Below are positions 1 to 37,147 of a stretch of DNA of 41,294 nucleotides, in pieces. A program made the position numbers and the translations under genes. The notes under the pieces were generated by a model. The model made no database searches. It saw only the letters and a program-made list of their open reading frames with translations, and was not told the origin of the DNA. The stretch's first letter is position 1. Each line of letters starts with the position of its first letter. The DNA is from a virus (taxonomy: Duplodnaviria > Heunggongvirae > Uroviricota > Caudoviricetes), in IMG/VR virus record IMGVR_UViG_3300033074_000010, positions 1 through 41,294 of that record; one strand, 5' to 3'.

Positions 1-41
1 GCGGTGGAGACTGCGTAGGGTTCAGGGGCTTATGACCGAAA

Positions 42-68
42 CCCGGACCGCGAATCCGGGTTTTATTT
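42..68 (+). terminator. intrinsic terminator-like hairpin
   Basis: Stem CCCGGA(42-47)/TCCGGG(55-60) followed by TTTT(61-64). Confidence 0.4.
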
Positions 69-74
69 TACCAA

Positions 75-103
75 TTGACACCTAAGACTAATACGACGAT
101 ACT
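75..103 (+). promoter_or_regulatory. sigma70-like promoter
   Basis: TTGACA(75-80), 17-nt spacer, GATACT(98-103). Confidence 0.45.
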
Positions 104-144
104 TAAATCACCTCCTGTTCCATCCCTCTGCTCTCCAGTTTTAT

Positions 145-174
145 CCCGGCCCTGACCCAGCCGGGATTTTTTTT
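145..174 (+). terminator. rho-independent terminator
   Basis: Stem CCCGGC(145-150)/GCCGGG(160-165) followed by T8 run (167-174). Confidence 0.6.
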
Positions 175-196
175 ATCTATTTTCTGCAATGACTAG

Positions 197-225
197 TTGA
201 CTATTACCCTAGACCCTATTATATT
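197..225 (+). promoter_or_regulatory. sigma70-like promoter
   Basis: TTGACT(197-202), 17-nt spacer, TATATT(220-225); precedes first small ORF. Confidence 0.5.
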
Positions 226-258
226 TACTTCATCGACAACGAGAACGGAGTAGAGAAG

Positions 259-408
259 ATGAAAATCACAGATATCGAAGCATTCGAAGACGCACAACTG
301 ATGGCACGTATTGCCGTTCATAACCTGAGCAACAGTATTCCGGCGGACGAGATCTGGTTCGCAGCGATGCAGACACTTAAAGCAGCTTATGCAGGAGAGA
401 AGAAATGA
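259..408 (+). CDS. hypothetical small protein (49 aa)
   Basis: ATG with GGAG upstream; stop overlaps next start (ATGA); below the ORF-track size cutoff, read by hand. Confidence 0.45.
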   Translation: MKITDIEAFEDAQLMARIAVHNLSNSIPADEIWFAAMQTLKAAYAGEKK

Positions 409-563
409 GCGAACACGGTGAAGTAAGCCAACCATTACGAGTAGGCCGCAAAGTCAGTCATACCCCGTTCCCGACACGCGAGGAACTGATGAAACGCAAC
501 AGTTTCCCTGGGCCTGACAAGAACAAGTACCTAAATCGAATGTGGGGAGAGCGTAAAGTATGA
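405..563 (+). CDS. hypothetical small protein (52 aa)
   Basis: ATG 405 overlaps preceding stop; ends TGA 561-563 overlapping next ATG; hand-translated. Confidence 0.45.
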   Translation: MSEHGEVSQPLRVGRKVSHTPFPTREELMKRNSFPGPDKNKYLNRMWGERKV

Positions 564-733
564 CTAACAACGAATATGAGAAACTTAGCGTAGAATCCGC
601 GACCGGTGAATCTGAAATAGCATGGATTGACGCCCACATTGAGCACTACTTACGGCAAGTAGACGTCCTTATGGAACGCCGCCGTGAGCTTATTAACCGC
701 TTCAACCTGAACAAAGGTGACACTAATGCCTAA
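560..733 (+). CDS. hypothetical small protein (57 aa)
   Basis: ATG 560 in ATGA overlap; stop TAA 731-733; hand-translated. Confidence 0.45.
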   Translation: MTNNEYEKLSVESATGESEIAWIDAHIEHYLRQVDVLMERRRELINRFNLNKGDTNA

Positions 734-1004
734 AATCACAATCGCATCACTCGAACGCCGTATTCTGGTGCTTGAATCAGAGAAACAGACGTTAGGTGGG
801 CAACTGTCGATTAATGGTGAGTTTCAACTGGAGGCGTTTAAGCAGTTACTCACATTAACGGCGGACATAGAAAGTATGCTTTGGTTGCTGGGGTCGGGAG
901 AATGGGCCGAACATTGCGCTGAATCGGAGTTAGGCAAACGGCTTGAGTCAGAGATTACTAACATGCTGAGTGGTCTTGGGTGGTCTCCAGATGAAAGCGC
1001 CTGA
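726..1004 (+). CDS. hypothetical protein (92 aa)
   Basis: ORF track 717..1004; likely ATG at 726 after AAAGGTGA. Confidence 0.55.
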   Translation: MPKITIASLERRILVLESEKQTLGGQLSINGEFQLEAFKQLLTLTADIESMLWLLGSGEWAEHCAESELGKRLESEITNMLSGLGWSPDESA

Positions 1005-1173
1005 ACCGGTAGTTATTGATGGCGTCTTGTGGAAGCCTTACTCGGTTAACCACATCGACGCCGACGGGAAGAAGTTCAGCTTCTACATTTTTGCAATTAG
1101 CCGTGAGCACGCCGCCTGTGTGGTCGACGATATACGAGAAACGGCGTGGCTTGGCGATGAGATAGTGAGGTGA
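991..1173 (+). CDS. hypothetical protein (60 aa)
   Basis: ORF track 970..1173; ATG 991 overlaps upstream gene end. Confidence 0.5.
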   Translation: MKAPEPVVIDGVLWKPYSVNHIDADGKKFSFYIFAISREHAACVVDDIRETAWLGDEIVR

Positions 1174-1177
1174 GAGT

Positions 1178-1276
1178 ATGAGTATGAGTCTCGAGGTGGT
1201 TATTGGCCTTGTAGCAGCAGGTTATTTTATCGGCGTATTGATTGGGTTTATGTGGGGTAGAGACAGTGTTCAGTGA
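1178..1276 (+). CDS. possible small membrane protein (32 aa)
   Basis: Hand-translated MSMSLEVVIGLVAAGYFIGVLIGFMWGRDSVQ; one hydrophobic helix; GAGG upstream; overlaps ORF 1242..1436 in another frame. Confidence 0.3.
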   Translation: MSMSLEVVIGLVAAGYFIGVLIGFMWGRDSVQ

Positions 1277-1436
1277 CATCAACGCGGCAATCGAAGAAGC
1301 AATCTGGCGCCGATACAACGGCGAGCAACAACGCCACTTCTGCCTGGTGCAACGCGGTAACATGATTGCCGTAGTGCAGGACCGCGATAACAAATATCCG
1401 AATGCGATGTGGACAACGAGGAATTTCTTAGGATGA
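1242..1436 (+). CDS. hypothetical protein (64 aa)
   Basis: ORF track; no clear RBS; stop overlaps next ATG (ATGA at 1433-1436). Confidence 0.3.
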   Translation: MGLCGVETVFSDINAAIEEAIWRRYNGEQQRHFCLVQRGNMIAVVQDRDNKYPNAMWTTRNFLG

Positions 1437-1669
1437 TTACCAGCATTCCGAACCTGATTAAAGAATTTGGCACGATGGCGGAGACATGCCGACAAACTGG
1501 CATCAACGAAATGACGATTGCGAAGTACAGCAAAGATGTTGATTGCGAGCGCCACGTAATTTATAACAACCGTCTTATGACGCACGTTAAGACAAGCCCG
1601 GTGTTATTCACGCGCCGGGGTATCACTAAAACTGAGCAACGCATTGCTAAAGAGGAGAGCAGGGAATGA
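1433..1669 (+). CDS. hypothetical protein (78 aa)
   Basis: ORF track 1409..1669; ATG 1433 in ATGA overlap; AGGAA upstream. Confidence 0.5.
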   Translation: MITSIPNLIKEFGTMAETCRQTGINEMTIAKYSKDVDCERHVIYNNRLMTHVKTSPVLFTRRGITKTEQRIAKEESRE

Positions 1670-1767
1670 GACTGCTAATCATCCCCAACGCTTGGACCAT
1701 TACCGTAGCTAACGACCATTACGGCGGCGATGGTAAAAGAGCACCACGACACGGCCTGTATAACTGA
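1666..1767 (+). CDS. hypothetical small protein (33 aa)
   Basis: ATG 1666 in ATGA overlap with upstream stop; GGAGAG upstream; hand-translated. Confidence 0.35.
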   Translation: MRLLIIPNAWTITVANDHYGGDGKRAPRHGLYN

Positions 1768-1781
1768 TTGGAGAGTAAGAT

Positions 1782-2003
1782 ATGAAAATTAAGCTAATAT
1801 CGGATGATGATGTTATGAATTGTGTAGGTAAGATGCACCACGGAGAGCCTACTTATTACATCTGTAACGTATTAAAATACACATATCCGAATTTAGACAC
1901 ACCATCAGTTCTCCGTAAGATTAAGGATATGGAGAAAAGAGGCCTCGTAAAGCGAACTAAAAGTCCGCTCTTCAAAAATAGCATAACCTGGACCTCGGTA
2001 TAG
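1782..2003 (+). CDS. hypothetical protein (73 aa), AT-rich
   Basis: ORF track; RBS GGAGAG 1770-1775; followed by terminator; lower GC than neighbours. Confidence 0.55.
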   Translation: MKIKLISDDDVMNCVGKMHHGEPTYYICNVLKYTYPNLDTPSVLRKIKDMEKRGLVKRTKSPLFKNSITWTSV

Positions 2004-2012
2004 CCGCTACTT

Positions 2013-2034
2013 GCCCTCTACGGAGGGCTTTTCT
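2013..2034 (+). terminator. rho-independent terminator
   Basis: Stem GCCCTC(2013-2018)/GAGGGC(2023-2028), loop TACG, then TTTTCT. Confidence 0.6.
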
Positions 2035-2128
2035 GTACATCCCGCCCAATACCCTTATATAATCCCTTTAGACGCGTAGGGCGCGTCTGGTGCGCTCTGA
2101 TGGTCAGACGCATATGCAAGGGGATTCT

Positions 2129-2674
2129 ATGAAGCTGAAACTTAAGCAGCCATCGCCAGAGGTGGTGCAAGCTGCACATGAAGAAGCTGTTAGCGCAAAC
2201 CGTCGCCGTAACCGACCGCGCGGTAAACAGAGCCTTTATCAATCATCCCGTAATTCCGCCGCGTTATGGGACCTGGGCTATTGCGACGAATTGATTCGTT
2301 TCTTCGACCGCACGTCATGGGAGCTTGTGCCTACGTCCAAGGGTGACGAACGTCCGCTGATTCAGGATAAACCGCCATCACTGGCCCGCTTCGCCTTACA
2401 CATCGGCGTCACTATACCAATTATTAAGCTGTGGCTGCGCGAGATTCCCGCATTTGCAGAAGCCTATGAAACAGCACAGGCGCTGGAAGAGGCATACTTC
2501 ACCGAGACAGGGGCCGCGGGCATTTCGGCTACGTTTGCTGCTGCGAAACTGGGGCTTAGCAAAGAGAAACCGGTTGAATCCACCGAAGAAACAGCACCGA
2601 CCGAGATTGTTTTCAGTGTTGCAGAGCCTGTAGGTAAAATCGTAACAACTAACATGGGCGAGGTAGAGGAATGA
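2129..2674 (+). CDS. terminase small subunit (putative)
   Basis: ORF directly upstream of and overlapping large terminase (ATGA at 2671); basic N-terminal region; alternative in-frame ATG at 2114. Confidence 0.55.
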   Translation: MKLKLKQPSPEVVQAAHEEAVSANRRRNRPRGKQSLYQSSRNSAALWDLGYCDELIRFFDRTSWELVPTSKGDERPLIQDKPPSLARFALHIGVTIPIIKLWLREIPAFAEAYETAQALEEAYFTETGAAGISATFAAAKLGLSKEKPVESTEETAPTEIVFSVAEPVGKIVTTNMGEVEE

Positions 2675-3921
2675 GTATTCAGCTATCCGCGCCCCAGGCT
2701 CTGTTCCTGAATTGCGATAACAAGTACAAGGCCTACGTCGGTGGCTTCGGCAGCGGTAAGACATTTGTTGGCTGCCTTGACCTGCTTACATTTATGCTCA
2801 AACACCCCGGTACGCGCCTGGGCTACTTCGGCCCCACATACCCCGCTATCCGTGACATCTTCTACCCAACATTCGAGGAAGCGGCTAACCTGCTTGGCCT
2901 CGATGTGCTGGTTAAATCCGGCGACAAAGAAGTTGTGGTTACTCGCGGTAAGACTGTGCTCGGTACGGTTATCTGCCGTTCGATGGATAACCCCGGCTCG
3001 ATAGTCGGTTTCAAAATCGCGGCTGCGGTAGTGGATGAACTGGACGTATTGAGCCGCGAGAAAGCCGAGCTGGCGTGGAACAAAATCGTGGCCCGTATGC
3101 GTCTGGTTATACCGGGTGTAATTAACCACATCTCTGTCACCACAACGCCGGAAGGGTTCAAGTTCGTCTATGCCAAGTTCAAAGAGAATCCGACGCCAAG
3201 TTACTCAATGGTGCAGGCATCAACTCACGAGAATGCGCGGTTCCTGCCACCGGATTACATTAGCTCGCTGACAGAGACTTACCCTGCGCAACTGATTAAC
3301 GCGTATCTGAACGGCGAGTTTGTCAACCTGACCTCCGGCAGCGTGTATTACGCCTATGACCGCCGTAAGCACCGCAGCAAAGAGACAATTCAGCCGGGCG
3401 ACACGCTGTACATCGGTCAGGACTTCAACGTTACGAAGAACGCCAGCGCCGTGTATGTGCAACGTAAAGACGGCTGGCACGCGGTAGCAGAACTGAAAGG
3501 CCTGTTCGATACGCCGGACACCGTTAGAGTGATTACTGAGAAGTGGAAGTCGCAAGGCCACCGCATCGTCGTTTACCCCGACGCAAGCGGCAAGAACCGA
3601 AAAACCAACTCGGCGTCAATCTCTGATATTGCGTTACTCCAGCAGGCTGGTTTCGATGTTCGCGCTAAATCTGCCAACCCCCCGGTTAAAGACCGCGTTT
3701 TAGCCGTGAATACCGCGCTGGAAAAAGGTAAGCTGTGGGTTAATGACCACTTATGCCCTGAGATAGCCAAGACGCTGGAGCAGCAGGCATACGACGATAA
3801 CGGAGAGCCAGCTAAAGATGGCATCATTGACCACATGGCGGATGCCCTCGGCTATCCTGTAGTTTACGAGATGCCGGTGGTTAAACCAGTAATCAACATC
3901 CCGGTGACTTTCGCACTTTAA
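2671..3921 (+). CDS. terL: terminase large subunit
   Basis: Walker A GGFGSGKT near N-terminus; 416 aa; position before portal. Confidence 0.85.
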   Translation: MSIQLSAPQALFLNCDNKYKAYVGGFGSGKTFVGCLDLLTFMLKHPGTRLGYFGPTYPAIRDIFYPTFEEAANLLGLDVLVKSGDKEVVVTRGKTVLGTVICRSMDNPGSIVGFKIAAAVVDELDVLSREKAELAWNKIVARMRLVIPGVINHISVTTTPEGFKFVYAKFKENPTPSYSMVQASTHENARFLPPDYISSLTETYPAQLINAYLNGEFVNLTSGSVYYAYDRRKHRSKETIQPGDTLYIGQDFNVTKNASAVYVQRKDGWHAVAELKGLFDTPDTVRVITEKWKSQGHRIVVYPDASGKNRKTNSASISDIALLQQAGFDVRAKSANPPVKDRVLAVNTALEKGKLWVNDHLCPEIAKTLEQQAYDDNGEPAKDGIIDHMADALGYPVVYEMPVVKPVINIPVTFAL

Positions 3922-25172: not shown

Positions 25173-25310
25173 CTACTCTTCTGATAACTTCTCCAGTACA
25201 AACGCCAGTTGCGCATTAGCGGCGTCTCTTTGCTGCCGTAGTCGTAGAACCTCCTCCTCAAGTTCCTTGATACGTTTTTGCAATGCGGGAATCGGGGCTA
25301 TGATGTTCAT
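25173..25310 (-). CDS. hypothetical small coiled-coil protein (45 aa)
   Basis: Hand-translated MNIIAPIPALQKRIKELEEEVLRLRQQRDAANAQLAFVLEKLSEE; start overlaps helicase stop. Confidence 0.35.
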   Translation of the reverse strand: MNIIAPIPALQKRIKELEEEVLRLRQQRDAANAQLAFVLEKLSEE

Positions 25311-26731
25311 TTCTTACCTCTTCTCTTCATATAATTAAGCAATTCTTCCTGGACCGATTTCTTCTCGTCTGTACGCGCGGCAACAACCTCGTCAAGAGTG
25401 TCTTTAGCGACTATGTGATAAAGGAACACCGGGCGTTCGTGGCCTGCCTGCTTCTGGCGCGTTGGGCCTATGCGCTCGACAACCTGCAAATAGTGCTCAA
25501 GGTTCCAGCCTTGTGAGATGAACGCCAGATGATGTCCGCCGTCCTGTAAATTCAAACCATGACCGGCTGATGCGGGATGCACGCATAAGATTTCGATTTC
25601 ACCGCGGTTCCACGCTTCCATCTGCTTATTGCCCTTAGCGCCTTTGGCGAACGCCTGTGCTTGTGGGAATCGCTTAAGGATACGCTCCAGTTCGTGCTTA
25701 AACTGATAGGCTACCAGTAACGGTGCGCCCTGTAACTCCTCAACAATTGACTCGAGCGCATCCAGTTTCGTGTCGTGCACTTTCTCCCAGTCTTTGGTTG
25801 CTTCTCCGTCGTCACCCGTCACATACACGGCACCGGAAGCAATCTGTAAACACTTCGACGTCTTCGCCGCCGCGTTAGCCGCTTCAACTTCTCCGCTCTC
25901 CAGTTCCGCAAATAACTTCTCCTCCATATCGGTATATGCCTGACGCGCCTTCTTCGGCAGGTCAATTTCCACTGGCACGATAATCGGCGCTTCGCAACCA
26001 AACCACTCGGCGGCGTCAATCGTGAGACTAATGTCTTTCATCTTCTGGTGAATCTCATTATCCGCGCCCGGGCGTGCGTGGTACTCCCGCGCTATCGCCG
26101 ACTTGCCTTTCTGTACTGAGTTAAACCAGCGGTCGGTGAATGCCGTGTACGAAGAACCGAGGCGCTCGCCAGCGTCGATAAACCAGTTCTGCCCCCACAA
26201 GTCCTTGAGGCCATTTGGCGATGGTGTGCCTGTCAGGTTAATGAACCGCTTAACCTTGCCGAACGCCACTTTGCTTAGCGCCTTAGCCCGTTTGCTTCCT
26301 CCAGAACGGCTACGGAAAGATTTCAGCTTCGTGCTCTCATCAGCAACGATAACCGTAAAAGGCCAGTCGTCTTTGCCGTAGTAGTCAATCAGCCACTCGA
26401 TAACTTCGTAGTTTGTGCACACCACGTTAGCATCTGACTCCAGCGCCGCGATACGGCGCTTCTCTGAACCGGTTGCGTCTACGACACTCAGACAGGGGAA
26501 GTTCCAACGTGCCTGTTCCGCGGGCCACGTACCGGACGCAACGCGCAACGGGGCGAGAATTAACACGCGGTCGTCGTCCGTAAGTTGCCCGTTGCGGAAC
26601 AGGCGGTTTAAAGTCCACAGGACGCTGCCGGTCTTCCCGGCGCCCATGCTTGCCCATATGTTACAGCGATTGTGCTGCAACATGAACGAGGTCATGAGCT
26701 TCTGATAGGGCCTTCTAGTGAATTTACCCAT
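25307..26731 (-). CDS. SF2 helicase (SNF2/DEAD-like)
   Basis: Walker A MGAGKTG, motif II VIVADES, motif III-like INLTGTP. Confidence 0.8.
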   Translation of the reverse strand: MGKFTRRPYQKLMTSFMLQHNRCNIWASMGAGKTGSVLWTLNRLFRNGQLTDDDRVLILAPLRVASGTWPAEQARWNFPCLSVVDATGSEKRRIAALESDANVVCTNYEVIEWLIDYYGKDDWPFTVIVADESTKLKSFRSRSGGSKRAKALSKVAFGKVKRFINLTGTPSPNGLKDLWGQNWFIDAGERLGSSYTAFTDRWFNSVQKGKSAIAREYHARPGADNEIHQKMKDISLTIDAAEWFGCEAPIIVPVEIDLPKKARQAYTDMEEKLFAELESGEVEAANAAAKTSKCLQIASGAVYVTGDDGEATKDWEKVHDTKLDALESIVEELQGAPLLVAYQFKHELERILKRFPQAQAFAKGAKGNKQMEAWNRGEIEILCVHPASAGHGLNLQDGGHHLAFISQGWNLEHYLQVVERIGPTRQKQAGHERPVFLYHIVAKDTLDEVVAARTDEKKSVQEELLNYMKRRGKK

Positions 26732-27668
26732 TTATGGCCCCCATAAACGCCTTTATAAATTCGGCAGCTACTTGCGGGACGATGGCATTGCCGTAACCGC
26801 GCAATCGTCCCACTCTGGCGGGTATCCCATTAGCCAGCGGGAATGTGCCGGGTTCAACTGGCCGGAATTTTCCATCCCGGCAGCCGAGCCAGTCAGTATC
26901 TGACCAGAAGCCGCGATGCGAATTGGTTGCGTTATCGCCGCCGCTTGTGCCACGTCTTGAGGTCCACCCTTCCTCTGAATCTCCGATAGCGACCCCTCTA
27001 GTGTTCTCACGTTCTTTTCCCCATCCGAACTGCGAGGGGTGGGCCAATTCGTCAGTTTTAGCCCCTGTTCCGTTGAGTAGTCCAGCCTGTCGAATGTTCT
27101 GTCCTTCCCGTCCTTGCGGATAACAGTCTCTCCGCTCCCTTTGTAATCGTTCGCTGTCGGTGTAGGCCAGTTGGTACGCACCAAAGAAGAGTCGTTCTCT
27201 TTTGTGCGGAGCGCCGACGCTACAAGCTGGGAGTACGGCAAACCCGACGGCGTAGTCTTCTCCTTCCAGGTGAGTTTGTAAATCGCACATCCACGATTTT
27301 GCAATTGCTGGTGCAACCTGTTCCCCAAAGAGGACTGGAGGGTGGCACTCGCTGATGAGGTCGAGGAAGACTGGCGCGAGGTGTCTCGGGTCGAACTGTC
27401 CGAGTTGTTTTCCTGCCGCGCTAAACGGTTGGCAAGGCGGGCTTCCCGTCCAGAGAGGCGTATCTTCCGAAACTCCCGCAAGTCTGAGCGCGAGAGGCCA
27501 GCCGCCGATGCCAGCGAAAAAATGACACTGGGTGAACCCGTCAAGGTCTTCTGGCTTAACTTCGGTAATGCTTCTTTCATCTACAACTCCAAAAGGTATT
27601 TGACCCTGTTTTATTAATTCCCGCAGCCACGCAGCAGCGCCTTTATCCCATTCATTGTAATAGTTCAT
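26724..27668 (-). CDS. DNA (cytosine-5)-methyltransferase
   Basis: Motif I FFAGIGG, motif IV SPPCQPFS (PC dipeptide); 314 aa. Confidence 0.8.
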   Translation of the reverse strand: MNYYNEWDKGAAAWLRELIKQGQIPFGVVDERSITEVKPEDLDGFTQCHFFAGIGGWPLALRLAGVSEDTPLWTGSPPCQPFSAAGKQLGQFDPRHLAPVFLDLISECHPPVLFGEQVAPAIAKSWMCDLQTHLEGEDYAVGFAVLPACSVGAPHKRERLFFGAYQLAYTDSERLQRERRDCYPQGREGQNIRQAGLLNGTGAKTDELAHPSQFGWGKERENTRGVAIGDSEEGWTSRRGTSGGDNATNSHRGFWSDTDWLGCRDGKFRPVEPGTFPLANGIPARVGRLRGYGNAIVPQVAAEFIKAFMGAING

Positions 27669-27856
27669 TTGGCCACCAGAACTAACTCTTTACGCCCGAA
27701 CGCCGTAACGTTACCCGTTACATCTTCGATAACCAGTTTACCGTTCGACTCGACGAACACCGTATCAACGGCAACAGGACGGCGGGTCTTAACATTGAAA
27801 ATCATGTCACCTGGTACGATGTCGCGTGCTGGTTTGCGGTCATATTCGTGTTTCAT
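27665..27856 (-). CDS. hypothetical protein (63 aa)
   Basis: ORF track; RBS AAGGA; first gene after promoter at 27891-27919. Confidence 0.5.
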   Translation of the reverse strand: MKHEYDRKPARDIVPGDMIFNVKTRRPVAVDTVFVESNGKLVIEDVTGNVTAFGRKELVLVAK

Positions 27857-27887
27857 TTCTCAATTCCTTATATTGTTGGGGTATGTG

Positions 27888-28175
27888 TTAACTATAATAG
27901 TGTGCTATTAGGGTGTCAACCTGTTTAAACGAGCCAACGACAAAAACATTTGCACCACGTTTACGCATACGCTCGTGCTCTCGTAACTGGTGCGGGTCTG
28001 GCTTCGTGTTTTCGTCTTTCTTCACCTCGACAAACCAGACTATGCCGCCAGGGAGAATTACCAGCAGGTCTGGAGCGCCGGAGCGCCCCTCGTAGGAAAG
28101 TTTACGAACGAGGCCACCAATGGCCTCGAATCGCTCCTTCGTGTATTTCTGTATTTTGCCCTCAGGCGTACTCAT
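27888..28175 (-). CDS. VRR-NUC domain nuclease (putative)
   Basis: PD-(D/E)XK-like core GAPDLLVILPGGIVWFVEVKK; 95 aa. Confidence 0.65.
   Translation of the reverse strand: MSTPEGKIQKYTKERFEAIGGLVRKLSYEGRSGAPDLLVILPGGIVWFVEVKKDENTKPDPHQLREHERMRKRGANVFVVGSFKQVDTLIAHYYS
27891..27919 (-). promoter_or_regulatory. sigma70-like promoter with conserved box (site 2)
   Basis: Read on - strand: TTGACA (27914-27919), 17 nt, TATAGT (27891-27896); palindrome AATAGTGTGCTATT 27896-27909. Confidence 0.6.
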
Positions 28176-28256
28176 CTACACACCCCTCACGTTTCGTATG
28201 CTCAATCCCGCAGCGCGGACAGATTCGGAAGTCTTCTTCATATATCCAGTAAATTT

Positions 28257-28388
28257 TCATTCCAGCACCCATAGATAAATTGCGATGAACATGCCCAATA
28301 TGGCAACCATCATGCCATATTGGCCCTCGTGACAGTAGACACCGACAGCAAATCCCGCCAGTACTGCGATAATCAGTTTACTTAGCAT
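28257..28388 (-). CDS. possible small membrane protein (43 aa)
   Basis: Hand-translated MLSKLIIAVLAGFAVGVYCHEGQYGMMVAILGMFIAIYLWVLE; start overlaps end of polymerase gene. Confidence 0.3.
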   Translation of the reverse strand: MLSKLIIAVLAGFAVGVYCHEGQYGMMVAILGMFIAIYLWVLE

Positions 28389-30558
28389 AACGCTTCATCT
28401 CCGCACCTTCTGCTACAAGAGGGAACCCCTCAGCCCATTCCGGTAATTCGCACATCAATCGTTCCAGTTCTGCGACATTGTATTCTGGTAAATCTGGTGT
28501 CTCGCAGATAATCTCATCGTGAACATGAAGCACAATCGGGTAGCCGTTTGCCTCTACGTTCAGCAGCGCATTAGCCAGCAAATCACGGCACAGCGCCTGA
28601 GTGCAGTTTTCCACCAGTTTACCCGAGTAGGTGTACTGAAACCCCCACTGGCGGGTTAGCTGATTTTCACCCTGGTACTTGATGCGCACGTTGGTAGACA
28701 CCTTTCCATCTTCGTCTGTCTCTTTCGACACGCTCAATCCTACGCCTGGGTATGACATAACGCGACCCGACGGCAACGTCATGCGCAACCACCAACCGGC
28801 GACTTTGTTGCCGTTGTTGTCTGTTTCTACGCTACGCGAAAACTTAACGCCACGCGGCCCTGCGGTGAACTCTTTACCTGGATTACGGATAGCTGCCATA
28901 GCCGCGTCTTCAATATCTCGCCAGAAAGCTACTGTTTCCGGGTGTGACTCACGCCACATGCGCTTGATAGCGTCGCAGGTACGCCACACTTTCTTATCCA
29001 GAATATATGATGGCCGGTCGTCCTTTTCACCAGGCCGCGGGGGCCGCTTGGCTTCCTGAATACGCGCCCACTCATATCCACGTGCGGTAGCGGCCCAGAT
29101 GTGGTCGGGGAAAGTCCCGTCCATTGTTTTTGCCATATCAACAAGGTCAAGGCCGAGGTTCTTGGCGAACTGTACGAATGCTCCGACACCGCCAGCGTAG
29201 CCGAGGCCCAGTTCGCAGGCCTTGCCAATCTGGCGTAAGTCTTTACGTTCTTTCTTAATGTAATCCGGCTCCATGCCGAACATCTTACCCGCTGTTACGC
29301 AGTAAATATCCAGTCCGGCGCGGAACGTATCAAGCGCGGTTTCTTCACCCGCCAGCCACGCAAGCCCTCGGCCCTCAACGTTCGAGTAATCGGCGACGAC
29401 AAACTTATGCCCGGCTTCCGGTATTATGCAGCTACGAACCGTCGATGCAGTTAGTTTGGCTACATCAAAACGGCGATGCGCACGGCCTTTAAGTAACGCA
29501 GAAATGCCTTTATCCAGTTCATCATCATGGTAGTACCCGCGCGCCAGGTTCTGCGGCTGGAAGCCTTTACCAGCAAACCGTAACGTACGCTTTGCCCCAC
29601 CGTACTGGATACAACCGCGACGTCGGTCGTCCGAAGAGCGACCCAACAGCAGCGGGTTATATTTCGTGGACGCGGTGGACGCGGCCCCGAGGCGCATTTC
29701 GATAATTGTGCGCGCGTCGTCGGGTAGATCATCATCCGCAAGCAGGTCATTAAGCGTCGACTTCTGCGCATTGTGGATGCGGTGCGCTGGAGCAAGCTCA
29801 CGCAGAATAGGCAGAAAGTCTTTACCAGTAAGCGAGCCGCCGTATTTACGTTGAGCTTCTTCCTGTAACTGCGCTTTGTGTTTCTCTACGGCTTCAATCG
29901 CGGCTTCTGCCAGTGCAACGTCAACCTTAAACCCGCGGTCGTTGATTAACTGGTCCAACTCCAGTACACGGTCTTCGAACTCAGAGTTACCCCAACGCGG
30001 CAGCTTATGGAAGACTTCACGCATCGCAGTGATGTCGCTCACGGCGTACTTGATGAACAGCGCCCACTCATCCGGGTGCGTTTCAGCAGTGTAGCGGCGG
30101 ATTTTGTAGTTCTTCGGTGTCGGTTTAGAAAAACGCTGAATAAGCGCTTTGCCTCGTTTGTCTTTCGCGTTGTCTGCGGACACGCCAAGCACTTCACACA
30201 GCGCATCAAGAGAACCCGGCAGCGCGTGACGAAACGCCCAAATCATCGTATCAATGGTGTTGCTTACCGGAATATCAAAGTCCCAGCAATGCTTCATGAT
30301 GAGCCTATCGAAAAGTCCACCGTTGTGCCACACCATCTTGATGCGGCTGTTTGGTTTAACCAGGCGGCGCAAGGCGCGATGCAAATCCCCCGGCATGTCG
30401 CTGCCGTCGGTGCAGTCCCATACCTGTACAGGCTCGTCGTCAAAAGCATATGTGCAGATAAGCACTTCGGTGGTTGGGTGTTCGGCGTAAGCGTAGGAAC
30501 CGACTTTCTTTAAATCGGCTTCGGAGAATGTTTCAAAGTCCAGGTATAAGTAGCTCAT
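28378..30558 (-). CDS. DNA polymerase, family A, with 3'-5' exonuclease domain
   Basis: Exo motif YLYLDFETFS; Pol A motif A-like DYSNVEGR and motif C-like HVHDEI; start ATG 30558 after AAGGAAAAAGAA (track ORF extends to TTG 30612). Confidence 0.85.
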   Translation of the reverse strand: MSYLYLDFETFSEADLKKVGSYAYAEHPTTEVLICTYAFDDEPVQVWDCTDGSDMPGDLHRALRRLVKPNSRIKMVWHNGGLFDRLIMKHCWDFDIPVSNTIDTMIWAFRHALPGSLDALCEVLGVSADNAKDKRGKALIQRFSKPTPKNYKIRRYTAETHPDEWALFIKYAVSDITAMREVFHKLPRWGNSEFEDRVLELDQLINDRGFKVDVALAEAAIEAVEKHKAQLQEEAQRKYGGSLTGKDFLPILRELAPAHRIHNAQKSTLNDLLADDDLPDDARTIIEMRLGAASTASTKYNPLLLGRSSDDRRRGCIQYGGAKRTLRFAGKGFQPQNLARGYYHDDELDKGISALLKGRAHRRFDVAKLTASTVRSCIIPEAGHKFVVADYSNVEGRGLAWLAGEETALDTFRAGLDIYCVTAGKMFGMEPDYIKKERKDLRQIGKACELGLGYAGGVGAFVQFAKNLGLDLVDMAKTMDGTFPDHIWAATARGYEWARIQEAKRPPRPGEKDDRPSYILDKKVWRTCDAIKRMWRESHPETVAFWRDIEDAAMAAIRNPGKEFTAGPRGVKFSRSVETDNNGNKVAGWWLRMTLPSGRVMSYPGVGLSVSKETDEDGKVSTNVRIKYQGENQLTRQWGFQYTYSGKLVENCTQALCRDLLANALLNVEANGYPIVLHVHDEIICETPDLPEYNVAELERLMCELPEWAEGFPLVAEGAEMKRYAK

Positions 30559-30680
30559 TTCTTTTTCCTTAAATCCAGTGCCTTCGTTTCGCTGAGTCTT
30601 ATTTTCATACAATCACGGCAAATCCACACATGCCTGTACCCGGCCCGGTACTCATCCGCGTACCAAGGAAGCGGTTTCAT
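30555..30680 (-). CDS. possible small Cys-containing protein (41 aa)
   Basis: Hand-translated MKPLPWYADEYRAGYRHVWICRDCMKIRLSE...; stop overlaps polymerase ATG; no clear RBS. Confidence 0.25.
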   Translation of the reverse strand: MKPLPWYADEYRAGYRHVWICRDCMKIRLSETKALDLRKKK

Positions 30681-30725
30681 ATAGCGATAAACGTGTTTAC
30701 AGAAAAACATTATTTTCGACCCTTA

Positions 30726-30749
30726 GTAAAAAGGCCCAATGAAGGGCCT
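30726..30749 (-). terminator. rho-independent terminator (minus strand)
   Basis: On - strand stem AGGCCC/GGGCCT followed by U5; lies between SSB and polymerase genes. Confidence 0.55.
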
Positions 30750-30769
30750 TAGTTAAATTGATTCAGATA

Positions 30770-31396
30770 TTAGCGGCGGCGACGTTCGCGGCGCGGTGCT
30801 GCATCTTCTTCGTCGTCTTCAAGGTCATTGACGCTAGCAGCGACTTTAGAACCCCCGAACGCTTTACCTTCGCCGACGTATTTAATCGCCAGCAGGTTAA
30901 CACCGAGGACTTTGTATTTCTGGCTGAACCAGATTTCAACGCTTACGTTAGCAACGCAGCCACTGTAAACCTGTTCGCCTTCAATCTGTTCGCCGTCTAC
31001 ATTGAAGTCCTGCTCTACCTGAGTCTCACCTTTTTTAGAAGTTACAATCAGCGGCTGTTTCTGCGCTTTCGCTTTGAAGTAGAAGCCTTCCGGGAAGTCT
31101 TCAAACGGATTGTCGCGCTCAGCAATGTCTTTAATCGCGCATTTATCCATGTGCTTACCTTCGCCGTAGTTTGACTTCATCCACTTCTCGGCAGCGGCTG
31201 CGCCTAACGCTTCTTCAACTACAGCGTAAACAGTGTCGTATAGCGCATCGATTTGAGCATGGTCAGACGGCAGGATGATAGTCGCGCTGTACCGGCCTTT
31301 AGTGATTGAGCCATCATCGTTTTCACGGTCTTTTTCGCGTTCGAATACGTTTACCCAAGCAGTGTTTACTTTACGCAGATTCAGTTTAATACCCAT
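30770..31396 (-). CDS. ssDNA-binding protein (T7 gp2.5-like, putative)
   Basis: 208 aa; acidic C-terminal tail DLEDDEEDAA; resemblance to gp2.5-type SSBs; adjacent to nuclease and polymerase. Confidence 0.5.
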   Translation of the reverse strand: MGIKLNLRKVNTAWVNVFEREKDRENDDGSITKGRYSATIILPSDHAQIDALYDTVYAVVEEALGAAAAEKWMKSNYGEGKHMDKCAIKDIAERDNPFEDFPEGFYFKAKAQKQPLIVTSKKGETQVEQDFNVDGEQIEGEQVYSGCVANVSVEIWFSQKYKVLGVNLLAIKYVGEGKAFGGSKVAASVNDLEDDEEDAAPRRERRRR

Positions 31397-31449
31397 CTTA
31401 ATTTCTCGCTTTTCAGTTTACTCCGGGAACTGCCCGGCCAGTGATTAGA

Positions 31450-31478
31450 ACTATAATAGCTAACTATTCGGGTGTCAA
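31450..31478 (-). promoter_or_regulatory. sigma70-like promoter with conserved box (site 3)
   Basis: Read on - strand: TTGACA (31473-31478), 17 nt, TATAGT (31450-31455); palindrome AATAGCTAACTATT 31455-31468. Confidence 0.6.
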
Positions 31479-31482
31479 CACT

Positions 31483-32724
31483 TTATTCCAAATCTTCTTC
31501 ACTAACCTGATTCCACTCAGGACGTTTGTCGTCTGCCATTGCTACACATGGCGCACCTGGCTTGCGGGTGATGAAGTCTTTCAGTTCTTCTTCCGGTATT
31601 ACTTTAACAGCTTCGGTCGGTGTCATGAGCACTTCTTTAGTCAGCTTGTCGCCGTAGAGTTCTGTCACTTTCTCCGCGTCTTTCCACGCACGATTACCGG
31701 GGCGACCTTCAACCAGTTTGTATCCTGGCACTTTCTTACCTGAATGCAAAGCAGCAGCCATCGCTTTCTCAACCTTGTCGATGTGCTGGCGCAACAACGG
31801 CAGCTTCTCATACTCAGCGACGAGTTGCTCCGGCGTAAGTTCCAGTGCAAAGTCGTCCTCCAGTTCTTCTGCCAGCACCGCGTTAACGGTTTTTGTACGC
31901 GCAGCGCACTGTTCAGAGAACCGACACCACTGGCACCCATCGACCGACGGCTTGAAGTCCGACGCTTTCAAGTTCTTCTTGCCACGGGAATAAGCATCAA
32001 GAGCTAACAGTGCACGTTTCTGGGCAAACTTAGCGAACAGTTCCAGACCTTCAACCGAAATGTCCCATTCCGACGCGCCACCAGCGTACGGCTGGAAGAT
32101 AACCAGACGAACCACGGTGATGTTATAACGTCTCTTGAGTCGGCGATAAACACCGAGAGCGTAAAGCATAAGCTGCTTGTTTTCTTTCGCTTCGACACGA
32201 TGCCGTCCTGTTTTCAGGTCGCCGATTACGAGCATATGCCCGTCGGTGTTTGCCAGTTCCTGAACGGCAACAAGGTCGGCGGTCCCGAACGTCTCAACGC
32301 CTTCGTAGCCTTGGTGCAATACCTCGGTAAGATTGACGCGCATTTCCAGCTTAGCGTAAGTCGCTACGTCGATAATCGCTTTGCAATAGTCGGTGTACTT
32401 GCGCACCTGCTCAATCATGTCTGCCGTAATCAGTACAGCGCCTTTCATCGGGCTGATTAGCGCTTTAATCTGGCCTCTACCCTCATCCAGCACGTAAGCG
32501 CCTACTTCGCGCTCTAACGGCAACGCAGTTCCGCGTATATACGCGTTTAAATGATATTCAGAAATGCTATGCATCGCCGTACCTAACACGGCAGCCTTGC
32601 CTGATGTGTTAGGAATATCTTTCTCACAGGCCAGCGATGCGGCACAACTCAGCCATTTCTTGGCTCCTGATGGTGACAGTAAGGCGTGCACATCATTATT
32701 GCCGCCGCGTTCTTTTAGAATCAT
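31483..32724 (-). CDS. PD-(D/E)XK exonuclease, Cas4/RecB-like with C-terminal Cys cluster
   Basis: N-terminal LSPSGAKKWLSC motif; C-terminal CQWCRFSEQC cysteines; start ATG 32724 in ATGA overlap (track extends to 32739). Confidence 0.75.
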   Translation of the reverse strand: MILKERGGNNDVHALLSPSGAKKWLSCAASLACEKDIPNTSGKAAVLGTAMHSISEYHLNAYIRGTALPLEREVGAYVLDEGRGQIKALISPMKGAVLITADMIEQVRKYTDYCKAIIDVATYAKLEMRVNLTEVLHQGYEGVETFGTADLVAVQELANTDGHMLVIGDLKTGRHRVEAKENKQLMLYALGVYRRLKRRYNITVVRLVIFQPYAGGASEWDISVEGLELFAKFAQKRALLALDAYSRGKKNLKASDFKPSVDGCQWCRFSEQCAARTKTVNAVLAEELEDDFALELTPEQLVAEYEKLPLLRQHIDKVEKAMAAALHSGKKVPGYKLVEGRPGNRAWKDAEKVTELYGDKLTKEVLMTPTEAVKVIPEEELKDFITRKPGAPCVAMADDKRPEWNQVSEEDLE

Positions 32725-32993
32725 ACCCTGTTCTCCCACTGGTCAATTAAATGTCTGGTCTGGTGCTGGCAATGCATGGCCCATCCATACATCGACTCGA
32801 AGACATAAAAGTCAGGCTTGGCAAAAGTCGTGCGCTTAATCTGCGACACATGACGGCCTATATCTTTAGCCCGCGGTACTTTGCCTAAGTACGCCATCTC
32901 TTCCATCTGGTGCGCACCTGACGGCGCACGCAACAGCCACAACGCCTCTGTGTTATCCCGCCTGTCAACGGCGCGGTAGAGTTGGTAAATCAT
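32721..32993 (-). CDS. hypothetical protein (90 aa)
   Basis: ORF track; RBS GAGGG; translationally coupled to exonuclease. Confidence 0.5.
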   Translation of the reverse strand: MIYQLYRAVDRRDNTEALWLLRAPSGAHQMEEMAYLGKVPRAKDIGRHVSQIKRTTFAKPDFYVFESMYGWAMHCQHQTRHLIDQWENRV

Positions 32994-33036
32994 AATTACG
33001 ACCCTCAGTTAAAGCGGCCCGAAGGCCGCGAGATAA

Positions 33037-33519
33037 TTATTCTTCTTCGAAATACTTGTTCTTGATTGCTGTCAGGCGTTCCAGGTACTCGGCCAGGTCT
33101 TCGTCTTTAATCGCGGCAATCTTCATCTTCTTACCGGTGAACTCTTCCAGCAGTTCATCAGAATCGTCGCACGCGGCATCGCTCGGACCTTCGTTAATTG
33201 CATCGTCGATAGCCTGAATCTGGTCACGAAGAGACTGGTAATCGACTTCTTCTTTCTCTTCTTCCGGCTCTGGCGTTGGTTCCTCTACTTTAGCTTTACG
33301 CGGCTTACGTTTTGGCTTCTCTTCTTCTGCTGGTTTAGTGTCAACGACGTCTTCACCTTCTACCGGGATTTCTTTTGCTGTCTCGATTGTTGCGGTTTGT
33401 TCAACGACCTCTGCGACTAATGCAGTTTTTGCAACATTAACTTGTTTCGCACTATTCGCAGCAATCAGTTCATGGGCGACTACGAAACGTTCCAGTAATT
33501 TAATAAATTGTTCTAACAT
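33037..33519 (-). CDS. hypothetical acidic protein (160 aa)
   Basis: First gene after promoter site 4; RBS GAGGAGAG; Glu/Asp/Pro-rich central region. Confidence 0.6.
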   Translation of the reverse strand: MLEQFIKLLERFVVAHELIAANSAKQVNVAKTALVAEVVEQTATIETAKEIPVEGEDVVDTKPAEEEKPKRKPRKAKVEEPTPEPEEEKEEVDYQSLRDQIQAIDDAINEGPSDAACDDSDELLEEFTGKKMKIAAIKDEDLAEYLERLTAIKNKYFEEE

Positions 33520-33550
33520 TTGTTTCTCTCCTCTCGTTTGGTATGGGCTA

Positions 33551-33579
33551 ACTATAATAGTGAACTATTCACTTGTCAA
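33551..33579 (-). promoter_or_regulatory. sigma70-like promoter with conserved box (site 4)
   Basis: Read on - strand: TTGACA (33574-33579), 17 nt, TATAGT (33551-33556); palindrome AATAGTGAACTATT 33556-33569; divergent from the Cro-like gene. Confidence 0.6.
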
Positions 33580-33643
33580 TGGGCTTTTATAAAATAATTA
33601 ATATGGTACTATTCACATATCAACTGACTAAGGAGTAATTGAC

Positions 33644-33859
33644 ATGCAACCATCTGAACTAGGCATCCGTGTAGAGCAACGCCGTAAAGAACTCGGCATC
33701 TCCCAGCGCCGTCTGGCTGTCCTGACCGGCGTTTCTCAGGGCGCGATTAACCAACTGGCACTCGGCGTAACTCAGGACGTCCGCCCTGCAACGCTGTTTA
33801 AACTGGCGGAAGTGCTGGAAGTAGACGCCAAGTGGCTGGCGTTAGGTGAAGGGGCTTAA
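33644..33859 (+). CDS. HTH transcriptional regulator, XRE/Cro-like
   Basis: 71 aa; HTH ISQRRLAVLTGVSQGAINQL; strong RBS AAGGAG (33630-33635). Confidence 0.75.
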   Translation: MQPSELGIRVEQRRKELGISQRRLAVLTGVSQGAINQLALGVTQDVRPATLFKLAEVLEVDAKWLALGEGA

Positions 33860-33874
33860 AGCCCCTTTCTTTTT
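33851..33874 (+). terminator. rho-independent terminator
   Basis: Stem GGGGC/GCCCC around the stop codon followed by TTTCTTTTT. Confidence 0.55.
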
Positions 33875-33876
33875 AC

Positions 33877-36138: not shown

Positions 36139-36263
36139 TTCTTTTTCTCCGCACGTTCTAAGGCTTCCTGCATACGGCGCATTGCGCGGTTCATCTTTAC
36201 CGGTGCGAAGAAATCAGCGCCGTGTTTCTGGCGGCGTAGCTGTGGAACTATTAACTTCGTCAT
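36135..36263 (-). CDS. hypothetical small basic protein (42 aa)
   Basis: Hand-translated MTKLIVPQLRRQKHGADFF...; RBS AAGGA; stop overlaps primase ATG. Confidence 0.4.
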   Translation of the reverse strand: MTKLIVPQLRRQKHGADFFAPVKMNRAMRRMQEALERAEKKK

Positions 36264-36313
36264 TGTATAATCCTTGTGCTTACTTTGATGATTTATGCTT
36301 CGGCCCCGACGTT

Positions 36314-36547
36314 CTAGCGTTGGGGTTTCTTTTGTCTACGCACCGCATTAACCCACTCCCCTTCGCTACGGTAAAAACTGCAATCAAGGATATCCTCTAT
36401 AGAAAATTTAACTATTTTAGTGGGTCCACAAAAGTTATAAGGGAAAAGTTCTACATAACACCCATCGTCGGTTATATTTGACGCAATCTTGAAATAATAT
36501 TTAATGCTGCCGTCTTCGCGGAAGCTACAACCCATACGCCCAATCAT
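36314..36547 (-). CDS. hypothetical protein (77 aa), AT-rich
   Basis: ORF track; start overlaps stop of AlpA-like gene. Confidence 0.45.
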   Translation of the reverse strand: MIGRMGCSFREDGSIKYYFKIASNITDDGCYVELFPYNFCGPTKIVKFSIEDILDCSFYRSEGEWVNAVRRQKKPQR

Positions 36548-36714
36548 TTCACGTTCTCCTTAATCCACGCTTCAACTTTATTACGGTCGAATGTTCCCGG
36601 CATCCGGCGACCCATTACTTTAACGCCGCAATCTGGAAACTTTCCACTCTTAATCCAGTTATTAATTGTCTGGCGGGTGACACCGATTAATTCTGCAACT
36701 TCATTGATAGTCAT
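36544..36714 (-). CDS. AlpA-like HTH DNA-binding protein
   Basis: MTINEVAELIGVTRQTINNWIKSGKFP matches AlpA/MerR-like phage regulator pattern; ATG 36714 after AGGAGA (track ORF extends to 36804). Confidence 0.65.
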   Translation of the reverse strand: MTINEVAELIGVTRQTINNWIKSGKFPDCGVKVMGRRMPGTFDRNKVEAWIKENVK

Positions 36715-36743
36715 TTCACGTTCTCCTATGTAAGATATACCGA

Positions 36744-36772
36744 AGTATAAGGCGGTAACTTTGTAAAAGCAA
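36744..36772 (-). promoter_or_regulatory. sigma70-like promoter for leftward early operon
   Basis: Read on - strand: TTGCTT (36767-36772), 17 nt, TATACT (36744-36749). Confidence 0.5.
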
Positions 36773-36794
36773 CCAAAACACCACACAAAGTTAC
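36755..36794. promoter_or_regulatory. inverted repeat, candidate operator
   Basis: 10-bp arms GTAACTTTGT (36755-36764) and ACAAAGTTAC (36785-36794) separated by 20 bp; left arm overlaps promoter spacer. Confidence 0.45.
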
Positions 36795-36819
36795 TAAAAT
36801 ACAAAAGATGCTACTAGTA

Positions 36820-36848
36820 TTGACTTTTACTGAGAAATATGGTAAGCT
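36820..36848 (+). promoter_or_regulatory. sigma70-like promoter (extended -10)
   Basis: TTGACT (36820-36825), 17 nt, TGgTAAGCT (36840-36848); same hexamers as promoter at 7090-7118. Confidence 0.55.
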
Positions 36849-36851
36849 CGT

Positions 36852-36963
36852 CCTGAGCTTGTGAAGTATGAACAAGCGACCGCGGTGCGCGGCAGGCGAA
36901 ACGAGCACGTCTCGACGTGTGGAGTGAGCCTCGCTGACGCATTCGGAAGGGCCATAGTCTATT
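36852..36963 (+). ncRNA. candidate structured RNA / cis-regulatory leader, copy B (family unassigned)
   Basis: Paralogue of 7122-7230; no ORF of 60 aa or more on + strand; identical 5' 34 nt and near-identical 3' block. Confidence 0.4.
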
Positions 36964-37118
36964 ATAATTCCCCGCCTAAATATCTAAGTTATTGATTTGC
37001 CGTAGGTCAGAACCGCAAGCTCACTCACTCACTCTTGGTGCCTTCGGCACCACGTTCGTTTCGTTTCGCTCGCTACCCCATTAAACAAAAGAATCACAAC
37101 GGCAACGTAACTAATCTC

Positions 37119-37147
37119 TTGCACACCCCAATATAATAGGGTACTAT
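37119..37147 (+). promoter_or_regulatory. promoter with conserved box (site 6)
   Basis: TTGCAC (37119-37124), 17 nt, TACTAT (37142-37147); box ATATAATAGGGTACTATTCAC; leader AAACGAGACAGAGGAG precedes ATG. Confidence 0.5.

Follow-up and report, generated by a model that had tools for sequence, protein, structure and literature searches.

A candidate small regulatory RNA in a conserved promoter–terminator cassette of Kagunavirus and Jerseyvirus phages

Why should a phage keep a strong promoter that runs into a terminator about 40 nucleotides (nt) downstream? The question is raised by the IMG/VR virus record IMGVR_UViG_3300033074_000010, whose 41,294 nt were analysed as a whole (hereafter, the window). 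Positions 75 to 174 of this DNA hold a sigma-70 promoter, P1, and an intrinsic terminator, T2, and a second promoter, P2, follows for the small genes downstream. An earlier note on the sequence had proposed that the P1–T2 unit produces a discrete, short RNA. We conclude from comparative sequence analysis that the unit is probably a real, uncharacterised phage regulatory RNA, and we give a probability of roughly 0.55 to a more specific reading, namely that it encodes an early, sigma-70-driven, trans-acting small RNA (sRNA) of about 65 nt with an Hfq-type architecture and anti-Shine-Dalgarno (anti-SD) blocks.

The window is a complete genome of a Kagunavirus (Guernseyvirinae), a virulent siphovirus of Escherichia coli. 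Its first 1,200 positions (1-1200) matched 355 phage records, every one of them with a Guernseyvirinae-like name; the Kagunaviruses of E. coli were the closest and the Jerseyviruses of Salmonella were farther off. Because position 1 corresponds to position 42283 of phage Schulenburg, about 90 nt past the endolysin stop of that phage, we take the window to be a whole, circularly permuted genome.

A unique and conserved promoter–terminator unit

Both promoters are present as the earlier note had claimed. P1 and P2 each score 10/12 in our promoter scan, and P1 has the hexamers and the spacing of lambda PL (TTGACA-17-GATACT). The terminator, with its run of eight T residues, also stands where it had been placed, and its stem proves to be longer, extending over 143-167 with the pairs A143-U167, U144-A166, C145-G165, C146-G164, C147-G163, G148-C162, G149-C161 and C150-G160. 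These enclose a loop of 9 nt, CCUGACCCA at 151-159, with a conserved CUGACCC core. The T2 hairpin folds at -13.8 kcal/mol and is the sole structure in the predicted transcript. It is the strongest intrinsic terminator of the genome, and the annotation of Schulenburg has a terminator at the equivalent coordinates; our automated terminator scan, which allows loops of 3-8 nt, missed it for the length of its loop alone. We further scanned for units in which a promoter scoring 10/12 or more has, 10-100 nt beyond it, a perfect, G+C-rich 7-bp stem with six or more T residues. P1–T2 is the only such unit on either strand of the genome and T2 the only terminator at this stringency; 60 dinucleotide-preserving shuffles gave no unit and no terminator.

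The loop core of T2 is a curiosity in its own right. CUGACCC is kept between genera despite a changed stem top, although termination does not depend on a particular loop sequence. On the plus strand, its complement, GGGTCAG, is found at 39163 and nowhere else; the minus strand has one copy, at 23757.

A query of positions 60-260 (201 nt) matched 445 phage records, all with Guernseyvirinae-like names and mainly from Salmonella and Escherichia phages, with at least 80% of the query covered in 316 of them; identity was 93-97% in Kagunaviruses and 74-82% in Jerseyviruses. Because the match begins in many records exactly at position 75, the first base of the -35 box, and divergence sets in right after the ATG at 259, the conserved unit is, as judged from these alignments, a 185-bp cassette of P1, RNA, T2, P2 and 5′ untranslated region (UTR) set between two mosaic breakpoints.

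As a guard against circularity, IMG/VR loci were collected by a pattern confined to P2 and its UTR. Each of the 43 unique upstream regions found in this way contains both P1, with its 17-bp spacer, and T2. The P1 hexamers are TTGACA/GATACT in 41 of the 43, one region has TTGACG, and one, locus L095, has CATACT together with a wholly different spacer and discriminator. Since L095 has had its spacer replaced and yet retains the hexamers and their spacing, it is the promoter signals themselves that selection keeps, and not the surrounding DNA; a reading of the locus as a terminator with an accidental promoter is ruled out by this promoter conservation. When the RNA body and terminator served as the anchor of a scan instead, the loci obtained were almost entirely the same, and P1, RNA body, T2 and P2 always occur together.

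Background divergence was measured at the four-fold degenerate sites of nine genes that are orthologous between the window and Salmonella phage SE2. Identity there is 32-60%, or 38-56% for genes offering 19 or more of these sites, which places the Kagunavirus–Jerseyvirus comparison close to saturation. The RNA body is roughly 80% identical between the two genera in a hand alignment. The P1 hexamers, their 17-bp spacing, CAUCCCUCU, UUUAU, the base of the hairpin, the loop core, the U-tract and the P2 hexamers are all unchanged. The RNA stretch is thus conserved far beyond neutral expectation, in the form of three C/U-rich blocks between variable linkers. Polymorphism is found in the spacers of both promoters, in the discriminator and in the linker that separates block 1 from block 2. 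Conservation resumes 1-3 bases from the predicted +1, with the exception of L095, in which four extra bases come first; the 5′ end of the RNA reads A-CCUCCUG in Kagunavirus and G-CUCCUG in Jerseyvirus. Such a pattern of variation would be expected of a transcript with a functional 5′ end, rather than of a DNA site or a coding sequence.

The start of the transcript was placed by analogy with lambda PL, whose +1 we take to be an A seven bases after GATACT; initiation is accordingly predicted at A110, with a product of 65 nt. With P1 under selection, conservation that runs from +1 and a compensatory change in the terminator stem (below), the discrete non-coding RNA of about 65 nt put forward in the earlier note holds as a prediction. 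The unit is indeed co-directional with the genes that follow, as all neighbouring genes point the same way.

The unit is neither a captured host sRNA nor a prophage element, because it is absent from the E. coli and species-genome collections. A copy of a host sRNA or of a prophage element was sought by blastn with positions 70-260 in 5,426 complete E. coli genomes, which returned only three spacers of clustered regularly interspaced short palindromic repeats (CRISPR), and an exact-pattern scan of one genome for each of 185,579 species gave only Jerseyvirus contamination in one Bacteroidota assembly. This assembly, of Taishania pollutisoli CZZ-1, has two different Jerseyvirus-type cassettes on contigs L105, L106 and L107 (NZ_JACVEL010000022.1, ...47.1 and ...45.1, respectively), which are almost certainly Salmonella-phage contamination. 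The E. coli matches consist of a 30-nt sequence that is 93% identical to positions 177-206, between T2 and P2, and lie in CRISPR-annotated features of three complete genomes (NZ_CP110511.1, NZ_AP045796.1 and NZ_CM177971.1); from their sequence and position they look like natural spacers against the conserved intergenic cassette.

Architecture of the predicted RNA

The predicted RNA (Table 1) is open at its 5′ side and folded only at its terminator. The 5′ 33 nt are unpaired in the minimum free energy and consensus folds and in three lineages, and RNAalifold, given 22 distinct sequences, predicts the terminator hairpin alone. Within that stem, the pair C150:G160 is replaced by U:A in six Jerseyvirus sequences, a compensatory change, and there is one G-U variant in addition.

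The open part is occupied by the three C/U-rich blocks. Block 1 reads CUCCUUG instead of CUCCUG in two Kagunavirus variants (L069 and L076) and, together with its neighbours (AUCACCUCCU), resembles the 3′ end of 16S ribosomal RNA (rRNA), which we take to be GAUCACCUCCUUA. The linker that follows is 6 nt long in Jerseyvirus, as CUUAUU or UUGAUU. Block 2 is the same in the Kagunavirus and Jerseyvirus consensus sequences, with single-base variants being rare. Another complementarity, to 16S rRNA at about positions 1170-1195, was discarded as being at the chance level for a purine-rich rRNA.

Taken as its reverse complement, the single-stranded part reads GGAGAG-CAGAGGG-AUG-GAA-CAGGAGGU in Kagunavirus and AGGAG-CUAGAGGG-AUG-AAU-AAG-CAGGAGC in Jerseyvirus. 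In sequence terms this is a textbook translation-initiation region, in which the two genera differ by exactly 3 nt in the linker of the ‘coding’ side and by 1 and 4 nt on the ‘UTR’ side. At the other end of the RNA, UUUAU, the G+C hairpin and U8 match, by their sequence, the Hfq-binding module, which is reportedly made of a U-rich stretch, a hairpin and a tail of at least 7 U.

Table 1. Features of the P1–T2 locus and of the genome around it (positions in the window)
Feature	Position	Strand	Description and basis
T1, intrinsic terminator-like hairpin	41..69	+	ACCCGGA / TCCGGGT, loop CCGCGAA, then TTTTATTTT; read from the sequence
P1, sigma-70 promoter	75..103	+	-35 TTGACA at 75-80, 17-nt spacer, -10 GATACT at 98-103
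Discriminator TAAATC	104..109	+	From alignments; AAACCT, GGTGTC or GGTTTC in other lineages
Predicted 65-nt RNA	110..174	+	5′-ACCUCCUGUUCCAUCCCUCUGCUCUCCAGUUUUAUCCCGGCCCUGACCCAGCCGGGAUUUUUUUU-3′; inferred from P1 and T2
Block 1, CUCCUG	112..117	+	Extreme 5′ end; CUCCU in every variant
Variable linker	118..120	+	UUC, CUC, CUU, UCC, UUU or UAU in Kagunavirus
Block 2, CAUCCCUCU	121..129	+	Most conserved part of the RNA body
Block 3, GCUCUCC	130..136	+	Third anti-SD-like stretch; AGCUCC in Jerseyvirus
U-rich stretch, GUUUUAU	138..144	+	Directly 5′ of the T2 hairpin; UUUAU conserved in both genera
T2, intrinsic terminator	143..174	+	8-bp stem 143-150 / 160-167, U8 at 167-174
P2, promoter of downstream small genes	197..225	+	TTGACT-17-TATATT; promoter scan
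P2 discriminator and purine-rich 5′ UTR	226..258	+	SD GGAG at 247-250; up to the ATG at 259
Small genes, terminase, structural genes	259 to about 25,100	+	ORF map
Replication genes	about 25,300-38,000	-	ORF map
Block ending in holins and endolysin (40169-41205)	after replication genes	+	ORF map
ORF, open reading frame; SD, Shine-Dalgarno.

Proposed mode of action

We propose that the host sigma-70 polymerase would fire P1 from DNA entry onward and stop at T2, and that this transcription would release an abundant RNA. Its free 5′ part (CUCCUG ... CAUCCCUCU ... GCUCUCC) would serve as the reverse complement of an SD sequence, a spacer of 7-8 nt, an AUG and the first codons, and its 3′ part is built like an Hfq-binding module. 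The most likely mode is that the RNA pairs in trans with the ribosome-binding region of at least one messenger RNA (mRNA) and blocks its translation; the targets would probably be host mRNAs and possibly the neighbouring P2 transcript. A bolder version, which we regard as doubtful, is that this 65-nt ‘anti-initiation-region’ RNA shuts off one host mRNA, for example that of a defence or envelope gene common to E. coli and Salmonella, or competes broadly for strong SD sites, in the manner of the ‘toxic sRNAs’ of Betaproteobacteria; it would then be a conserved host-takeover sRNA of lytic phages, present in hundreds of isolates for therapy and biocontrol.

Target prediction against phage mRNAs, carried out by complementarity and duplex scans in the genomes of Schulenburg (Kagunavirus) and SE2 (Jerseyvirus), did not yield a convincing target. 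The duplex scans covered all annotated initiation regions, 85 in Schulenburg and 61 in SE2, with shuffled RNAs as controls, and gave no match common to both genera. A weak candidate is the P2 5′ UTR with its start codon, for which the duplex with the RNA has an energy of about -20 kcal/mol in either genus; in Jerseyvirus, GGAG, UAGAG and GAUGAA take part, with a single bulge. A gene starting MSNKNEVFEY (38287 in the window) ranked first in Schulenburg and second in SE2 and seemed to co-vary with the RNA.

Several of these results, and some others, count against a trans-acting sRNA. Neither phage genome has a complementarity of at least 12 nt outside the locus itself; the longest is 11 nt, within the helicase gene and in Kagunavirus only, and that of Jerseyvirus is 10 nt, in a non-homologous place. 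The best duplex in Schulenburg was equalled by 88 of 100 shuffled RNAs. In SE2 the best duplex is at the initiation region of the helicase gene; 2 of 100 shuffles did as well, and Kagunavirus has no counterpart site. The MSNKNEVFEY gene had to be rejected, as its upstream region differs widely among Kagunaviruses with an identical RNA, and the pairing with the P2 5′ UTR is marginal relative to shuffles (0.10 and 0.07), with other initiation regions doing better. The compensatory pair in the T2 stem is a single one, and sequence diversity lies mostly within two clades. The one RNA sequencing study of a Kagunavirus (PMC12645636) reports gene-level counts only. Finally, Enterobacter phage phiEap-2 (KT287080.2), which is unclassified within Guernseyvirinae and has a portal protein 82.5% identical, contains at the position of the unit (3534-3772 of locus L100) a terminator, GCCCCGGTTCTCCAGACCGGGGC followed by T10, and then a promoter-like site, with no recognisable P1 or C/U block. 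An operon boundary of the T2/P2 type can therefore work without the RNA, and the RNA gene would have been either gained in the Kagunavirus/Jerseyvirus lineage or lost in phiEap-2.

Alternative explanations

The phiEap-2 arrangement is one of the reasons to consider that the locus is an operon boundary with a 3′ UTR element, which we judge unlikely although it survives better than the other alternatives. T2 would end the lysis transcript and shield P2 from upstream transcription, the C/U stretch would act in cis, for instance as a Rho-loading or stability element, and the P1 transcript would be functionless. The Jerseyviruses fit this. In SE2 and EnJE6 the endolysin stop TAG lies one base before TTGACA, so that the RNA sequence doubles as the 3′ UTR of the lysis mRNA, with T2 common to both transcripts and being the only terminator after the lysis genes; the stretch is also C-rich and G-poor, as read from the sequence. 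Such an explanation does not account, however, for a P1 of lambda-PL grade with exact 17-bp spacing in all 43 loci, one of them with a replaced spacer, nor for conservation that starts at the predicted +1. It also leaves unexplained that the unit is unchanged in the window and in Schulenburg, where about 160 nt containing T1 lie between the lysis genes and the unit (163 nt from the endolysin stop at 41205 to P1 in the window). T1 belongs to the variable endolysin–P1 spacer, outside the conserved cassette; it is absent from Jerseyviruses, and many Kagunaviruses have other sequence there. From its sequence, then, the T1 spacer is what makes the unit of the window free-standing. Were the C/U stretch to act in cis in the 3′ UTR of the lysis mRNA, an sRNA could still exist alongside.

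A less probable explanation is a promoter controlled by antitermination, as in lambda PR'-tR', in which P1 would be constitutive and T2 would halt transcription until a phage factor allows read-through to the terminase and structural genes. The geometry is right, with a constitutive promoter and a short terminated transcript that is co-directional with, and upstream of, the packaging and structural genes. Neither a factor of a known family nor its sites were found: the curated annotation of Schulenburg has no Q-family or other antiterminator, none came up in Pfam searches of 20 small ORFs taken from the nin-like and pre-lysis regions and from a few further places, and the first transcribed bases, ACCUCCUGUU for Kagunavirus and GCUCCUGCUU for Jerseyvirus, have no -10-like hexamer in common that could serve as a sigma-dependent pause element. 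A boxA/nut-like element was considered as well, as Jerseyvirus GCUCCUUUA is similar to boxA, GCUCUUUA, and was rejected by eye given a 5-nt insertion in Kagunavirus (GCUCUCCAGUUUUA). Moreover, P2 gives independent access to the downstream genes, for which T2 is not the only route, and a further terminator–promoter pair (2013-2063) stands before the small terminase gene.

It is highly improbable that the locus acts at the level of DNA, as a site bound by a phage or host protein, or as a signal for packaging or replication whose likeness to a promoter and a terminator is incidental. Conservation of the whole 185-bp cassette, including the parts between signals, and its mosaic breakpoints on both sides would suit such an element. 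Yet the variable positions are precisely those that a promoter and an RNA tolerate (spacers, discriminator and linkers), the stem pairing is kept through a double change, and no pac/ori-like repeats or signals were noticed on reading positions 1-260 by eye, with no repeat search made.

A small protein was also considered and rejected. Mechanical ORF calling gives a 26-amino-acid TTG ORF at 75-155 on the plus strand and a 28-amino-acid TTG ORF at 103-189 on the minus strand, and in Salmonella phage AG11 a 39-amino-acid product, AG11_59A (JX297445.1, 39926-40045; 562-681 of locus L002), is annotated from the P1 spacer through the RNA and T2 into P2. The statement in the earlier note that no ORF lies in between thus needs qualifying, given the TTG ORFs and the annotated one. 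None of these, nor a mini-ORF on the minus strand, is conserved as coding: the ATG of AG11_59A is absent in SE2, indels between genera measure 1, 3 and 4 nt, and no ORF is preserved on either strand. AG11_59A itself is, very probably, an artefact of gene prediction at the RNA locus.

The minus-strand mini-ORF deserves a separate word, although we see very little chance that this strand is the functional one. It would be a leader-peptide-like element, with GGAGAG, 7 nt and an ATG followed by 6-7 codons, encoding MEQEVI* in Kagunavirus and MNKQEQV* in Jerseyvirus. The arrangement of SD, spacer and ATG is kept, both of the variants that change CAT give CAC and so turn ATG into GTG, another start codon, and the linker indel between genera is 3 nt. 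Against this, the promoter scan finds no promoter-like site for this strand within positions 1-3000, and for 13 kb rightward the genes all lie on the plus strand. The second codon is hypervariable (E, K, G, I or N) while CAGGAG is fixed even at third positions, and the stop is lost in AG11 and L095. The same pattern is expected from the mirror image of a base-pairing target, and an RNA that is the antisense image of the kind of site it binds would, on the sequence, be the simpler reading.

An attenuator, which the earlier note had offered as an alternative, is conceivable but not needed, since P2 is equally conserved, begins 23 nt past the T-run and serves the downstream genes, the first of which has its ATG at 259.

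Genomic setting

The P1–T2 unit lies in the gap that separates the lysis genes from the small ‘nin-like’ genes ahead of the terminase; the packaging and structural genes begin at about 2090. The right-hand edge of the conserved cassette is formed by positions 226-258, in which the Kagunavirus and Jerseyvirus consensus sequences agree at 31 of 33 positions; past the ATG, the gene differs among phages, from its first codons on. In the loci examined, which were partly chosen by patterns containing the P2 hexamers, these hexamers are constant and the P2 spacer is variable. The annotation of AG11 also has a promoter at the position equivalent to P2.

Sites of the form TTGAC[AT]-16..18-[TGC]A[TC]ANT occur five times genome-wide, with a chance expectation of about 0.7 by a hand estimate; on our reading of the ORF map, all five are between ORFs and aimed at downstream genes. 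On the minus strand, three TTGACA-17-TATAGT promoters (11/12; 33579-33551, 31478-31450 and 27919-27891) lie upstream of ORFs of the replication region. These three have spacer motifs in common (AATAG ... CTATTATAGT), and CTATTATA is also present in P2, which looks, from sequence alone, like a phage-specific promoter family. The motif of the replication-region promoters resembles the fBC-Eco01 consensus tgAATAGTa-ccTATTat-T (PMC9825357).

Two other hairpins were recorded along the genome. The pair at 2013-2063, directly upstream of the small terminase gene, is composed of GCCCTCTACGGAGGGC and TTTTCT followed by TGTACA-18-TATAAT, and repeats the architecture of the T2–P2 boundary without an upstream promoter. 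A palindromic hairpin, AAGGCCCCTTTCGGGGCCTT at 13214-13233, has a terminator score on both strands and sits at the junction of the tail-tube gene, on the plus strand, with a run of minus-strand ORFs.

Significance and relation to known systems

Few phages are put forward for therapy and for biocontrol in food as often as isolates of Kagunavirus and Jerseyvirus, whose current annotation leaves the 185-bp cassette empty or fills it with a spurious ORF. If the proposal is right, a conserved, strongly expressed early sRNA would offer a new handle on host reprogramming, and annotation would be corrected. The unit is amenable to genetics, as a 65-nt gene between two mosaic breakpoints, and even if the RNA were functionless, the locus would still be a clean natural tandem terminator–promoter insulator. 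What gives the candidate its weight is chiefly that it is so widely conserved in lytic phages used for therapy, and that testing it would be cheap.

Several regulatory RNAs of temperate phages and prophages are well known, namely OOP, DicF, StxS and AgvB, and lambda is reported to have another, PreS. To our knowledge, such RNAs are hardly known in strictly lytic enterobacterial siphoviruses, and no description of one for Guernseyvirinae turned up in the literature searched. Lambda OOP, to which the earlier note likened the unit, is a 77-nt RNA with its own promoter and an intrinsic terminator; it works in cis, antisense to the convergent cII gene. The likeness extends to a short phage RNA with such signals and goes no further: no gene or conserved ORF lies opposite, there is no extended complementarity elsewhere in the phage genome, and, with no partner gene, antisense action of the OOP type is excluded.

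The layout also resembles that of lambda PR'-tR' (6S RNA) and of StxS in Stx phages, where the terminated RNA is itself said to be an Hfq-binding regulator. In these cases too, a constitutive phage promoter drives a short, intrinsically terminated transcript that is co-directional with, and upstream of, the late genes. Unlike them, the present unit has no Q gene, Q-binding site or pause element that we could find, its terminator is followed by P2, and it sits after the lysis genes rather than before. In Jerseyviruses, it is also reminiscent of DapZ, reportedly a Type I 3′-UTR-derived sRNA, with the promoter placed where the upstream coding sequence ends and the terminator serving that mRNA too, whereas in the window and several other Kagunaviruses the T1 spacer uncouples it from the lysis mRNA.

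No part of the window matches Rfam at the gathering score. Searches at E up to 10 gave sub-threshold, terminator-driven matches only, the best of which were to C/U-rich sRNAs directed against ribosome-binding sites. RF02278 (the ‘toxic sRNA’ of Betaproteobacteria) came first with 25 bits, half its gathering score of 50. Members of this family have unpaired CU-rich stretches complementary to ribosome-binding sites and are named for inhibiting the growth of E. coli (PMC5688073). It is the terminator hairpin and a UGUCUCC-like motif that produce the match, with about 20 model positions missing here, and RF02278 is a double hairpin, whereas the phage RNA has one. The likeness is, by analogy, functional and does not amount to family membership.

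Among enterobacterial RNAs, the comparison falls to the Hfq-dependent sRNAs, such as CyaR, whose C/U-rich seed resembles the 16S 3′ end. The phage RNA departs from CyaR-type sRNAs in being encoded by a virulent phage, in having three anti-SD-like blocks instead of one, and in lacking a sequence homologue in the 5,426 E. coli genomes or in Rfam. Yet it is put together as the Hfq-dependent sRNAs are, with its own sigma-70 promoter, a length of about 65 nt and a conserved, single-stranded, C/U-rich 5′ seed, followed by a U-rich stretch, a G+C hairpin and a U8 tail.

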